DNA of 36,956 nt, from IMG/VR virus record IMGVR_UViG_3300035498_000730. The stretch is one strand, 5' to 3'. Each line of letters begins with the position of its first letter. The first letter of the stretch is position 1. Positions 20,117 through 23,226 of the stretch are shown here, piece after piece. This DNA comes from a virus. The notes beneath the pieces are model-generated. The model did no database searches and was not told the DNA's origin. It saw nothing but the letters and a program-made list of their open reading frames with translations. A program made the translations under genes and the position numbers.

Positions 20117-21349
20117 ATGAATACTTGTGATACTTGCTTGCTCTGTACTAAAGAGAGTAGATTGCAAGCATTTAATAATATAAAAAATAAATTTTCTGCT
20201 GAAAAGAATTTCCAATATAATCCAGCAGAAGATTCATATCCAGAAACAATGCTTTTAGGACTGACAAATAGGTGCAATTTGTCATGCCCTTATTGTTTTG
20301 TTAATCAAAATCAGACTGATATGACTTTAGAAGTGGCTGAGCAAGCTATTAAATGGCTTAAATCTAATCATCAAAAAAGAAATTTCCAAGATAGAATGGG
20401 TGTTACTTTTTTTGGTGGAGAGCCACTATTGATGTATAATGAAATTATTGTTCCATTAGTAGAAAAATATTCTTCTGAAATTGATTTTACCATTACAACA
20501 AATGGAGTATTACTTGATGAAGATAAAGTAGATTTCTTCCGTAAATATCGGATTCAGCCTCTATTATCTTTTGATGGCGTTCCAGAAGTGCAGAACAGTC
20601 AACGTCCTGGAAAAAATTGTAACTCATTTAATGAAGTTTTGAATAATATTCCATATCTCCTTCTGCGGTTGCCAGATACTGTAATGCGTGCAACAATTAC
20701 AAAAGATTCAATTCCTTATCTGTATGATACTGTAATTATGGCAGAACAATTAAATTTTAAAAAGATTGTTTTTTGTCCTAACGCATATGAAGATTGGGAT
20801 AGGGAAACTGAAAAAGAATTATTTAATCAATTTAATAAAATTGGTTTATATATCTATAAGAATTTAAGAGAAAATAATTTTGATACTATTAGAGTAGACC
20901 CCATTTGCGCAAGATATTCTGATATAATGAGTATGTCAAAGAATAGTCTATACTTTAATAACCATTTACACAGATGCGGTCTTGGTACAACTACTTGTGC
21001 CATTACACCTACTGGAGACATTGTACCTTGTCAAGAAAAGATTTCTAATCCTACAACTATTTTAGGTAATATTTGGGATGGAATTGATTTTACGAAGCAT
21101 GAAGAATATTTAAGAAATTATTTTGAAAGAGTAAACAGTTTAAAATGTGATAAAGGATGCTCAGATAGAGAAAAGTTAGTATGTCTGTCTGACATTTGTC
21201 CATCTCGTTTAGAAGATTTAAATTATACTTTTTCTACATCTCAATGCGCTTTTATTAGAACAGCATTAAAAGTTGCAGGAAGATTGCATTTTTTATGCTC
21301 TAATAGTGTTTTTCCCCATATTAGAGAATATTTTGGAGAGGAGGATTAA
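20117..21349 (+). CDS. radical SAM/SPASM maturase-like enzyme 2
   Basis: ORF-track ORF; GGAAGGAG RBS; CNLSCPYCF (CxxxCxxC), GGEPLL; C-terminal Cys cluster CGLGTTTCAITPTGDIVPC...C..C; no in-frame TAG. Confidence 0.8.
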   Translation: MNTCDTCLLCTKESRLQAFNNIKNKFSAEKNFQYNPAEDSYPETMLLGLTNRCNLSCPYCFVNQNQTDMTLEVAEQAIKWLKSNHQKRNFQDRMGVTFFGGEPLLMYNEIIVPLVEKYSSEIDFTITTNGVLLDEDKVDFFRKYRIQPLLSFDGVPEVQNSQRPGKNCNSFNEVLNNIPYLLLRLPDTVMRATITKDSIPYLYDTVIMAEQLNFKKIVFCPNAYEDWDRETEKELFNQFNKIGLYIYKNLRENNFDTIRVDPICARYSDIMSMSKNSLYFNNHLHRCGLGTTTCAITPTGDIVPCQEKISNPTTILGNIWDGIDFTKHEEYLRNYFERVNSLKCDKGCSDREKLVCLSDICPSRLEDLNYTFSTSQCAFIRTALKVAGRLHFLCSNSVFPHIREYFGEED

Positions 21350-21353
21350 TTCA

Positions 21354-22532
21354 TTGAAACCTGTTAAAGTAAGAACAATTTTATTTACAGAAGCCTGTCC
21401 TCTCTCTTGCCGATATTGTTTTTTAAAAGATGATGCAGGTTTTGGAACAAAACCGCAAATCTCTTTTGATTATATTAAAGCTACTATCGCGGATTATGAC
21501 AAGCAAGATAATCAAGAATTGGTTGATACTCGATTGTTATTTACTGGAGGCGAACCTTTTCTCTTTTGGAATGAGATAAAAGAAATTATAGAACACTATG
21601 GGAACCGTTTCCAATATGCGTTCAACACAAGCGGGTATCTTTTTACAGAAGAAATGCTTGAATTTCTTTCCCATTATAAAGTAAATTTTGTATTGTCTGT
21701 TGATGGCGGAGAAAAACTTACCAATTATTTGCGGCCTGTAAATATAAATGTATATAAAGTTGGATATATGAGACAATTAAAAAAGATTTTACCAACTCTT
21801 TTATATTATTTCCCGCAAACTCCTTTTAGGATAATTGTTAATCCTAGATATGTAGATTTATTATATGAACAATACCTTGAAGCAGAACAAATGGGATTCA
21901 AGTATTTTACTTTTATTCTTGATTTTGAATGTCGTCCTGATAGTCCTAAAAAAGGAGTTATTTGGACAGATAAGGATACAAAAGTTCTTCAAGAGCAATT
22001 TGATTTAATTATTCAAGAAATCCTTTTGGGTTTCCATGAGGGAATAAAAAAACCACAAGTTATTGAAATAAATAAAATAGTTCAATTTTTATTAAAGCAA
22101 ACTCCTTATGATGTTAATAATTTACCTTGTCAAGTGTTTGCAGGGAGGTCTAATTATACAATTCAAAATCCAGAAGATGATAGTTATTGTATGTCTCTTT
22201 ATTATCCAGATATGGAAGATGCAAAAAAAGCATTATATGATGCTTATCAAGAAAGAAATCATCAATGTTTAAAAGATCCTAATTGTCCAGCTTTTGAATA
22301 CTGTGCTCAATCTTGTTGCCCGCAATATTGTTTAGCAAAAAATAATCAATTTTTTGATTTTGATGATTTGGAATGTACTACAAATAAAATTATGTATCAA
22401 TTAGGATTAAAGTTTTTATCCATTGCTAATGAATGTTGTCCAGATTCACAATTGTTTAAACAGTATATTAATCAGTTTGATTATCCAGGAAAGGAGGAAG
22501 CAGTTATCAATGGCAACTTATTATCCTTGTAA
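21354..22532 (+). CDS. radical SAM/SPASM maturase-like enzyme 3
   Basis: Likely TTG start 8 nt after GGAGAGGAGGA RBS (the track's earlier start overlaps the upstream gene); CPLSCRYCF, GGEPFL; C-terminal Cys-rich CLKDPNCPAFEYCAQSCCPQYC. Confidence 0.7.
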   Translation: MKPVKVRTILFTEACPLSCRYCFLKDDAGFGTKPQISFDYIKATIADYDKQDNQELVDTRLLFTGGEPFLFWNEIKEIIEHYGNRFQYAFNTSGYLFTEEMLEFLSHYKVNFVLSVDGGEKLTNYLRPVNINVYKVGYMRQLKKILPTLLYYFPQTPFRIIVNPRYVDLLYEQYLEAEQMGFKYFTFILDFECRPDSPKKGVIWTDKDTKVLQEQFDLIIQEILLGFHEGIKKPQVIEINKIVQFLLKQTPYDVNNLPCQVFAGRSNYTIQNPEDDSYCMSLYYPDMEDAKKALYDAYQERNHQCLKDPNCPAFEYCAQSCCPQYCLAKNNQFFDFDDLECTTNKIMYQLGLKFLSIANECCPDSQLFKQYINQFDYPGKEEAVINGNLLSL

Positions 22533-23226
22533 AAGCTCTCAAGCTAGTGCATTTTGTACTCTTTGTTTTAGTACTCAATCTAATCCTAGTGGTTGTACTT
22601 CTTCCTCTTCAAAAAATTCAAGTAGTAATAGTTTGAACTGTTCTGCTTATTGTAATACTGGATGTAATTCTAAATGCAACACCGCTCAAACTATATGCGT
22701 AGTTCATAGCCAGTATATAAAGGATCATTCTGATGTTGGAGCTTATCCTGGAAAAGAAGTTAATTCAAATGACTTTATTTACAAACATTGGACAGCAGAC
22801 TATTGGAATAGTTTAATTGAAAAACTTGATGCTGCAGAGGATATTGGCTATGTAGTATCTCAAAAATCATCAGGAGAAGTTTCAGTTGATGAAGTAAATA
22901 AAAATGATGTAATTACAGCGAAATTTTATAACGATGTTCGTAATAAGCTTTGCAATTTTAATGTTTCTTATGATACAGTAGCACAAAATCAATTAATTAC
23001 TGCTACTATTGCTAATGCAGTTAAAACAGCATATGAAAATGCTAAATTTAATTCAAATGTATGTGATGCTTGTAATACTAGCCAAGCAAGTAGCGGAGGA
23101 TGCAGTTGTAATTGTTCATGTCCATGTTCTTGTAGCTGCGGATGTAGCTGTCCTTGTTCTTGTGATTGTAATTGTAGCTGTGGGCCTAGTTGCTCTTGTA
23201 ATGCACCAACTACTACTACTACTTAA
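22510..23226 (+). CDS. Cys-rich repeat protein 2: N-terminal Cys-containing Ser-rich region, central helical domain, C-terminal CSCNCSCPCSCSCGCSCPCSCDCNCSCGPSCSC tract
   Basis: ATG 22510 seven nt after AGGAGGAAG RBS, overlapping the upstream radical SAM gene by 23 nt; central domain (DIYKHW..YNDVRNKL) resembles the C-terminal domain of the 14656 protein (DIYQRI..YDSVRIIYNNL). Confidence 0.7.
   Translation: MATYYPCKSSQASAFCTLCFSTQSNPSGCTSSSSKNSSSNSLNCSAYCNTGCNSKCNTAQTICVVHSQYIKDHSDVGAYPGKEVNSNDFIYKHWTADYWNSLIEKLDAAEDIGYVVSQKSSGEVSVDEVNKNDVITAKFYNDVRNKLCNFNVSYDTVAQNQLITATIANAVKTAYENAKFNSNVCDACNTSQASSGGCSCNCSCPCSCSCGCSCPCSCDCNCSCGPSCSCNAPTTTTT

Follow-up and report, generated by a model that had tools for sequence, protein, structure and literature searches.

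To our knowledge, nearly all that is known of radical S-adenosylmethionine (rSAM) maturases of the SPASM type encoded together with Cys-repeat targets comes from comparative genomics. One such class, the CXXX-repeat system (maturase family TIGR04115; target families TIGR04114/PF27846 and TIGR04117), has been defined bioinformatically, and our literature search found no experimental paper on the chemistry of its maturase or target, nor anything relevant on TIGR04115, on radical SAM enzymes of Lak megaphages, or on phage SPASM enzymes and ranthipeptides. Here we describe a cassette (locus 2) in IMG/VR virus record IMGVR_UViG_3300035498_000730, a stretch of 36,956 nucleotides that we call the window and to which coordinates refer unless another contig is named. 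In this cassette two rSAM enzymes, rSAM-A and rSAM-B, precede a Cys-rich protein, while a related one-enzyme pair (locus 1) lies further upstream. Locus 2 is an uncharacterised two-enzyme, two-tract form of this bioinformatically known class and is not categorically new. We favour, with moderate confidence, the reading that it is a phage operon for post-translational protein maturation, in which the two SPASM-type enzymes most likely form thioether cross-links.

Like the CXXX-repeat system, locus 2 has an rSAM enzyme of SPASM type directly upstream of a regular Cys-repeat protein, and this protein keeps a short CxxxC tract ending in C-N-x-G-C, as in the locus-1 family. Moreover, its folded core is homologous to the locus-1 core through a bridging protein, P0162, which has a weak precomputed match to PF27846. 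By contrast, locus 2 has two enzymes instead of one, neither with the 300-residue N-terminal extension of the locus-1 enzyme, and its target has, in addition, a CDxCN anchor followed by a (CxC)n/(CxxC)n tail. By profile, the closest characterised systems are CteB/CteA and PapB/PapA (the freyrasin precursor), which share with locus 2 the rSAM core, the C-terminal auxiliary-cluster Cys and Cys-rich substrates, the expected reaction being a thioether bond from Cys sulfur to carbon. However, their substrates are peptides of about 45 residues, whereas the putative substrate here has 238 residues and includes a folded domain; a CX3D/E acceptor motif is not apparent in locus 2, and its hosts are phages. 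A third comparison is QhpD, a SPASM rSAM enzyme that puts several Cys thioether cross-links into QhpC, the γ-subunit of an amine dehydrogenase, which stays a structural component. Locus 2 resembles this pair in its SPASM-type maturases and in a candidate substrate that would be a protein instead of a released peptide, but no other dehydrogenase subunit genes lie near it, and the fold and motifs of the target are unrelated.

The three genes of locus 2 lie tightly packed on the plus strand, each with a strong ribosome-binding site. The gene for rSAM-A (20117..21349, 410 amino acids, defined by its open reading frame and translation), a radical SAM/SPASM maturase, is preceded by a tRNA-Ser gene and has the ribosome-binding site AGGAAGGAGA before its ATG. 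The second, diverged radical SAM/SPASM-like maturase, rSAM-B (21354..22532), has 392 amino acids when read from the TTG at 21354. Its mechanically called open reading frame is open from a TTG at 21273, which is 81 nucleotides too early (21273-21353): the ribosome-binding site GGAGAGGAGG at 21335-21344 precedes the TTG at 21354, the orthologues have 376-402 amino acids, and a 98%-identical relative, L096, carries a 392-residue gene call. The ribosome-binding site and the orthologue lengths therefore place the start at 21354, 4 nucleotides after the rSAM-A stop, and the two genes do not overlap. The Cys-repeat protein (22510..23226; 238 amino acids, 28 Cys, beginning MATYYPC), which is supported by its open reading frame, its homologues and the ribosome-binding site AAGGAGG before the ATG at 22510, overlaps the 3' end of rSAM-B by 23 nucleotides and ends in …GGCSCNCSCPCSCSCGCSCPCSCDCNCSCGPSCSCNAPTTTTT, a tail of the form CSCNCSC…SCSC. 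Both enzymes are probably translationally coupled to the target gene. A sequence-only reading of this stretch had described two radical SAM genes in a row with the motifs CNLSCPYCF and CPLSCRYCF, C-terminal Cys clusters in both, and an overlap of the second gene with a 238-residue protein whose tail it quoted. These details are exact (the motifs read RCNLSCPYCF and ACPLSCRYCF, and each enzyme has seven C-terminal Cys); its gene order and motifs stand, and the one correction concerns the mechanically called opening of the second enzyme at 21273.

Both enzymes are members of the rSAM superfamily, with Pfam Radical_SAM (PF04055, cut-off 29.5) matched at 57.1 bits by rSAM-A and 48.4 bits by rSAM-B. 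The cluster motif is CNLSCPYC (C53, C57, C60) in rSAM-A and CPLSCRYC in rSAM-B, and the SAM motifs are FFGGEPLL and FTGGEPFL, respectively. The SPASM subfamily (PF13186/TIGR04085), marked by seven C-terminal Cys that hold two auxiliary [4Fe-4S] clusters, is approached by rSAM-A (18.5 bits against a cut-off of 21.5, E=0.0025) and gave no match to rSAM-B in the Pfam scan; the seven C-terminal Cys of both enzymes are spaced non-canonically relative to the SPASM motif. In rSAM-B these Cys (C259, C279, C305, C311, C317, C322 and C341, numbered in the 392-residue form) are invariant across five orthologues, while in rSAM-A (C287, C305, C344, C348, C356, C361 and C376) three of the seven are invariant among aligned orthologues and some lineages have lost four. 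Specifically, the rSAM-A orthologues of a gyrase-adjacent lineage (L003 1232-2314, L005 4500-5828 and L012 3910-4995) keep only the equivalents of C287, C305 and C361, which suggests, from the alignment, a Twitch-like single auxiliary cluster in these forms. At its N-terminus, rSAM-A has a CxxCxxC mini-motif (C4, C7, C10; 20126-20146), a CxxC or CxxxCxxC form of which is found in four of the five aligned orthologues (L002, L005, L006, L012) and is absent from L003; judged from its sequence, it could be an extra metal site that substitutes for an RRE domain. The Pfam scan gave no RRE/PqqD match in either enzyme.

Among the NCBIfam families, the best match for both enzymes is PapB (NF047865; 168.4 bits for rSAM-A and 64 bits for rSAM-B, below the cut-off of 340), followed for rSAM-A by nif11, SCIFF, QhpD, CcpM and CXXX-repeat maturases, all far under their cut-offs. 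For example, the SCIFF maturase family TIGR03974 (cut-off 425), whose partner is a six-Cys peptide of about 45 residues, scored 118.9 bits with rSAM-A and 48.7 with rSAM-B, TIGR04115 (cut-off 350) scored 84.9 and 33.4 bits, the QhpD family TIGR03906 (cut-off 453) reached 95 bits, and the anSME family TIGR03942 reached 70 bits. SPASM or Twitch maturases make up all of the top 25 NCBIfam matches of rSAM-A and the majority of the rSAM-B ones. Among solved structures, the rSAM-A profile comes closest to that of the thioether synthase CteB (PDB 5WGG, E=1.5e-40), with the anSME structure 4K37 at E=7e-15, whereas the more diverged rSAM-B has its best PDB matches in 8VPO and CteB, both at about 1e-13. 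The RRE region of CteB is N-terminal, and rSAM-A aligns with CteB only from residue 89 on; therefore, rSAM-A is without this N-terminal RRE region. On profile evidence, both enzymes belong among the SPASM peptide- or protein-maturases, with scores far under the cut-off in each named family. Identity as QueE, a PFL activase or viperin was rejected on the NCBIfam, PHROGs and PADLOC profile results. The PADLOC model for prokaryotic viperin (pVip), an anti-phage defence enzyme, for example, aligned with them through no more than its generic rSAM part at the N-terminus (positions 6-116 of the 257 in the model; 54 and 47 bits). The sequence-only reading had held that a QueE- or PFL-activase-like placement would speak against it; all three enzymes, that of locus 1 included, instead fall in the peptide- or protein-modifying SPASM clade by NCBIfam.

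The 238-residue protein consists of an N-terminal CxxC/CxxxC tract, a three-helix folded core, and a CDxCN anchor with (CxC)n. The N-terminal tract (residues 7-63; 22528..22698), which the sequence-only reading had overlooked, comprises C16xxC19, the run C44-x3-C48-x3-C52-x3-C56, and C56-N-x-x-Q60-T-x-C63, the last being conserved throughout the target superfamily and taking the form C-[ND]-x-x-Q-x-x-C in distant members. In the core (residues 64-184; 22699..23061) each of the three helices opens with (I/V)TAxx(W/Y/A)N, and the second and third helix repeat units align with a probability of 84%. The C-terminal tract (residues 185-230; 23062..23199) is made up of the anchor C185-D-x-C188-N, a 9-residue linker, and the (CxC)n part from C198 to C230, with 16 Cys in 33 residues; it is not a DNA tandem repeat. 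AlphaFold2 predicted residues ~67-185 confidently (pLDDT about 90) as three helices and both Cys tracts as disordered, with pLDDT below 50 in the N-terminal one, and a structure search found no PDB match for the core fold. No family for the protein was found in Pfam, NCBIfam, PHROGs or PADLOC, including the target profiles TIGR04114 and TIGR04117 in the NCBIfam scan, and its homologues have no precomputed Pfam family assigned.

These homologues form 53 clusters, all unannotated and all metagenomic. Across them C16, C19, C44, C48, C56, Q60, C63, W94, G113, N141, C185, D186, C188 and the tail Cys are invariant, whereas the residues between the Cys, as well as the number of repeats, vary; invariant Cys with variable intervening residues indicate that the pattern is not due to chance. 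Family-wide, the intervening positions of the tail follow the order S>N>G>P>D>A>T; Lys and Arg do not occur there, and hydrophobic residues are very rare. In one target subclade the tail has CxxC spacing, and tract length is variable across the family.

The order rSAM-A, rSAM-B, Cys protein, with genes overlapping or abutting, was found in every related locus that we read (9 independent contigs; L001/L002, L003/L004, L005 (NCBI LSPY01000002.1), L006/L007, L009-L012 from IMG/VR, L096/L097 and L098), even where the targets are only 27% identical. Both enzymes are present also in L098, which represents the subclade with a CxxC tail. In an all-against-all BLAST comparison, identities were 35-59% among rSAM-A proteins, 29-54% among rSAM-B proteins and 22-34% between the two groups, so by sequence rSAM-A and rSAM-B are separate, co-inherited orthologous groups. 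In some lineages a fourth gene, not present in the window, directly follows the Cys protein. It encodes a third short rSAM enzyme with the motif CNRNCSFC (L003_D, L003 4151-5011; L012 6678-7718, split), a protein of 320-330 amino acids with a C-terminal CxxCxxxxxC (L005_D, L005 7769-8731; L006_D, L006 7776-8768), or an FkbM-type methyltransferase (L002_D, L002 3243-3998).

In the searches run here, the two-enzyme triad was found only in phage-like metagenomic contigs. Among 50,697 GenBank phage records, blastn with the locus and tblastn with the locus or the Cys protein returned nothing, and tblastn with rSAM-B returned partial matches to the rSAM core only; the cassette is therefore absent from this collection. 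An IMG/VR scan with the single Cys-rich protein also gave nothing, while a scan with rSAM-B yielded true orthologous loci in 5 of 80 cases. The GTDB representative genomes, searched with rSAM-B patterns, contained no orthologue and one 25%-identical core match only. The best IMG/VR match to rSAM-B (L008, IMGVR_UViG_3300021400_000219; 53% identity) has almost no long open reading frames in the standard code, and this phage probably also uses a recoded stop codon.

Comparison with the near-identical relative L096, which like L097 comes from the JGI samples 3300035501 and 3300035502, shows how differently the members of the triad evolve. The enzyme genes are 98.4% (rSAM-A; 16 synonymous and 3 non-synonymous codon differences) and 98.1% (rSAM-B; 17 and 5) identical at the nucleotide level, whereas the Cys protein is 88% identical, and over its first 200 codons 14 differences are synonymous and 19 non-synonymous. 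A 10-residue indel lies in the CxC tract, where a run count gives 13 CxC steps in the window (23101-23199) against 8 in L096 (10001-10690), and all Cys outside it are kept. The target thus evolves faster than the enzymes, and its repeat number is plastic. The flanking open reading frames are only 72-83% identical, so that conservation is mosaic, and a recombination mosaic could contribute to the pattern.

Locus 1 provides a built-in point of reference. Its maturase (12549..14654, plus strand; 701 amino acids with TAG read as Gln, 13 TAG) has C-terminal 400 residues that belong to TIGR04115 (356.7 bits against 350), and its N-terminal extension of ~300 residues (12549-13448) has no Pfam or NCBIfam match. 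The adjoining Cys-rich protein (14656..15258, plus strand; 200 amino acids, 1 TAG) begins with a CxxxC repeat tract, continues into a helical core and has no C-terminal tail. Directly compared, the two Cys proteins are only weakly similar (BLASTP E=0.002; hhalign probability 50%, E=1.7e-4, or 25% with the cores only). However, the same residues of P0162 match both the locus-1 family (hhalign probability 99.2%, E=8e-20) and, at 97.3% and E=1.8e-11, the locus-2 core; the two cores are therefore homologous. AlphaFold models of the two proteins, that for locus 1 being taken from its 87%-identical relative P0054, also gave overlapping Foldseek lists, with 7 weak BFVD targets in common.

The proposal of the sequence-only reading that the Cys-free domains are alike is thus borne out through P0162, and so is its view that the two loci are the same kind of system. 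Its contrast of CxxxC with CxC cores was inaccurate, since in the locus-2 protein a CxxxC tract is retained and a CxC tail comes in addition; the loci also differ in having one enzyme or two. It had further called the loci paralogous, duplicated and diverged. In the sense of a recent duplication within this genome, this was rejected: the enzymes are only 24-28% identical (28% for rSAM-A with rSAM-B, 24% for rSAM-A with the locus-1 enzyme), only the locus-1 enzyme passes TIGR04115, and the two loci fall into separate families, each of them widely distributed.

When a profile of the core alone (A5) was run against 1.84 billion proteins, it returned 79 matches, and the distant ones keep the bracketing motifs, C-[ND]-x-x-Q-x-x-C before the core and C-D-x-C-N after it. 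One match, P0160, a 4,086-residue Ig-repeat protein, was set aside as a probable repeat artefact. Some members have CxxC on both sides of the core (P0144, P0150, P0155, P0152, P0167) and others have an N-terminal CxxxC tract only (P0162, P0172). P0155 and P0162 each lie directly behind a single rSAM gene, whose products match rSAM-A (E 1e-41 to 1e-53) much better than rSAM-B (1e-11 to 1e-24) or the TIGR04115 type (1e-10 to 1e-15). Therefore, rSAM-A looks like the general maturase of the target superfamily, whereas rSAM-B appears only with targets that have a long C-terminal tail, the CxxC-tail subclade included.

The core also occurs without Cys tracts, as the C-terminal domain of P0186 (probability 96.3%, E=2e-9 with the core profile) and P0185, whose N-terminal parts are FN3-like. 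In the tail modules of siphophages, genes of this type directly follow those for the tape-measure, Dit and Tal proteins. P0186, P0162 and P0144 all match the C-terminus of phrog_37329, and proteins of the phrog_37329 type have a homologous three-helix 'ITAxxxN' core but differ from the locus-2 target in having neither Cys tracts nor an adjacent rSAM gene. These homologues suggest, at the level of sequence, that the core is a virion or host-interaction module.

Taken together, we hypothesize that the folded core of the 238-residue protein docks the enzymes and is recognised in place of a leader peptide, a proposal made because neither enzyme has an RRE domain. rSAM-A and rSAM-B would then modify the Cys tracts by 5'-deoxyadenosyl radical chemistry, and, by analogy with CteB and PapB, the product would carry intramolecular thioether cross-links of the sactionine or ranthionine type. 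Since rSAM-B is found only with C-terminal-tailed targets, its probable site of action is that tail. What results would be a protein, and not a released peptide, with so many cross-links that it resists reduction and proteases, and in which remaining thiolates may still bind metal. Given that the core is otherwise C-terminal in tail-module proteins, this product could be a structural or host-interaction protein instead of a diffusible peptide.

Several points weigh against this hypothesis. The cross-linking chemistry is drawn wholly from analogy, and the assignment of rSAM-B to the tail from co-occurrence alone. Both enzymes score far below every curated family cut-off, so their reaction could be different or new, and the loss of four of the seven C-terminal Cys by rSAM-A in several lineages indicates that a full SPASM domain is not essential. 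The tail shows no evident acceptor motif of the known thioether kind, for instance the CX3D found in PapB substrates, and its composition (Cys with S, N, G, P and D) would fit a metal-thiolate binder equally well. Finally, in the loci read the cassette lies among genes for replication and nucleotide metabolism (gyrase, NrdD, PhoH) and amidase genes, and in the window it sits in a tRNA-rich, TAG-free stretch; neither setting is a structural module, and the idea of a virion protein is the weaker for it.

A bolder version of the hypothesis, which we regard as speculative and rather unlikely, is that the target is a stapled phage protein, in which a tail-fibre-type head is joined to two Cys ladders that the two enzymes zip into a rigid thioether rod, possibly with metal thiolates, to serve as a needle, adhesin or armour at the host interface. 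If this were true, it would mark the first case in a phage of a virion or host-interaction protein matured by radical SAM enzymes, and modifying a pure (CxC)n tract would probably require chemistry that is new.

Alternatively, the triad might be a classical pathway for peptides that are made on ribosomes and altered after translation (RiPPs), in which the core is an oversized leader or follower, and one or both tracts are cross-linked and then cut off as short peptides rich in Cys, for example bacteriocin-like or signalling ranthi- or sactipeptides. The enzymes would suit such a pathway, as their nearest named families are the RiPP maturases PapB, SCIFF, nif11 and CcpM, and so would Cys tracts that are disordered appendages on a recognition-competent domain; a peptidase of the M28 type is encoded near locus 1 (9874-10839). 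However, the short leader-bearing precursor, the RRE/PqqD domain and the protease or exporter by which RiPP clusters are recognised are all lacking in the cassette. No protease, exporter or immunity gene accompanies the triad in the loci read, and none of the first two types was called among the immediate neighbours in L001-L007, L096/L097 and L098. The homologue alignment shows no conserved cleavage motif between core and tracts, and C56…C63 and C185-D-x-C188 lie on either side of the core much like integral parts of it. Moreover, where the core occurs without Cys, it forms the C-terminal domain of tail-module proteins, and in length the protein exceeds typical precursors several-fold (SCIFF peptides, for example, have 45 residues). 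We therefore consider released peptides improbable.

About equally improbable, in our judgement, is a metal-thiolate protein whose tracts bind Zn, Cu(I), Fe or Fe-S clusters and are not cross-linked by the enzymes; such a protein might supply or buffer iron and sulfur for the enzymes, or sequester host metals. The CxC-rich copper metallothioneins of fungi, which bind Cu(I), resemble the tail in composition and Cys spacing, and the density of 16 Cys in 33 residues, with small or polar intervening residues and no Lys or Arg, is what this alternative would expect. Likewise, the repeat number is free to vary even between near-identical phages, as for a capacity-type binder, and each enzyme needs up to three [4Fe-4S] clusters. 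Unlike in metallothioneins, however, the tail is attached to a folded domain and its gene is always coupled to rSAM maturases. Hidden Markov model searches gave no Pfam match for the window protein at E ≤ 0.01, whether to a metallothionein or to an Fe-S scaffold family, and no metallothionein family for three homologues at E ≤ 1. The constant coupling to two specific SPASM maturases, one of them restricted to tailed targets, would be left unexplained, and the superfamily pattern of one Cys-repeat target with one maturase is that of the curated CXXX-repeat families (TIGR04114, TIGR04115, TIGR04117).

Still less probable is that the enzymes perform other radical chemistry, such as formylglycine-type oxidation as by anSME, epimerisation, C-C cross-linking or methylation, possibly one reaction per enzyme. 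Both are far from all characterised families, anSME is among their matches (TIGR03942 at 70 bits; 4K37 at 7e-15), and some lineages add a third rSAM enzyme (L003_D) or an FkbM-type methyltransferase (L002_D). The thioether synthases are nevertheless clearly closest, with CteB at 1.5e-40 against 7e-15 for anSME and with PapB, nif11 and SCIFF at the top of the NCBIfam matches, and Cys itself is the strictly conserved feature of the putative substrate. That the Cys-rich frame is a chance neighbour or not a real gene, for which nothing speaks but the absent family annotation, is contradicted by its strong ribosome-binding site and its overlap with the upstream gene, the 53 constrained homologue clusters and the confident AlphaFold core, and is effectively refuted by synteny in all loci read.

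The source of the window is a large or giant gut-type phage in which TAG is recoded as a sense codon. Several plus-strand genes are intact only with TAG readthrough, and a suppressor tRNA with anticodon CTA, which reads TAG, is encoded at 24056-24125 on the plus strand, 0.8 kb downstream of the cassette (labelled 'Pyl' by ARAGORN). It is one of 17 tRNA genes that ARAGORN found between 15342 and 25366, with short open reading frames between them. The single TAG of the locus-1 Cys protein corresponds to Gln in P0054, which fits genetic code 15, a code validated by proteomics in crAss-like phages (PMC9523058). A neighbouring protein of 810 amino acids is ~40% identical to proteins of the distantly related, uncultured huge phages LR756500-503; the GenBank phage search found the cassette to be absent from these phages, which were themselves found through this neighbouring gene.

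In-frame TAG codons occur only in a minority of plus-strand genes, for example at 4551-5600, 8936-9856, 12549-14654, 14656-15258 and 23424-23894. The two locus-1 genes together contain 14 over 901 codons (13 in that for the maturase, 1 in that for the Cys-rich protein); at this rate the 1,040 codons of locus 2 should hold about 16, whereas the three locus-2 genes have none, as the sequence-only reading had already stated. Their lack of TAG may reflect separate acquisition, as that reading had suggested, or an earlier expression class. Since most other genes of the window are also TAG-free, it is locus 1 that is unusual. In recoded phages, TAG-free genes tend to be early. By analogy with this general tendency, locus 2 may be expressed before locus 1.

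Some neighbouring genes are also of interest. Between the Cys-rich gene and the suppressor tRNA lies an HNH endonuclease gene (23424-23894, plus strand; Pfam HNH E=1.6e-5 with TAG as Gln; three in-frame TAGs), which may be a homing-endonuclease insertion, at the position where other lineages have a fourth cassette gene. Further downstream, a gene for a DUF2828/DUF7788 protein (phrog_850, labelled 'RNA-binding protein') is kept 2.4-2.6 kb from the cassette in the window (25766-27328) and in two related contigs (L096 13135-14784; L098 9368-10924). Upstream of locus 1, the M28-type peptidase-like protein (9874-10839) has C-terminal Cys-pair repeats resembling zinc ribbons, and a 479-residue phrog_18912 protein (10733-12172) also ends in Cys-pair repeats; it is possible that these two proteins process the locus-1 product.

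These comparisons define a broader target superfamily, in which one folded core is flanked by CxC, CxxC or CxxxC tracts and is encoded next to a maturase. Within it, the window offers a compact three-gene system with a built-in comparison, namely one tract and one enzyme against two tracts and two enzymes. If the tracts are cross-linked, phages would use RiPP-type chemistry on full-size proteins, and the enzymes could possibly provide new means of stapling Cys-rich sequences. The link between the core and tail modules, together with the contrast between TAG-free and TAG-rich loci, bears on how giant phages schedule and decorate their proteins.

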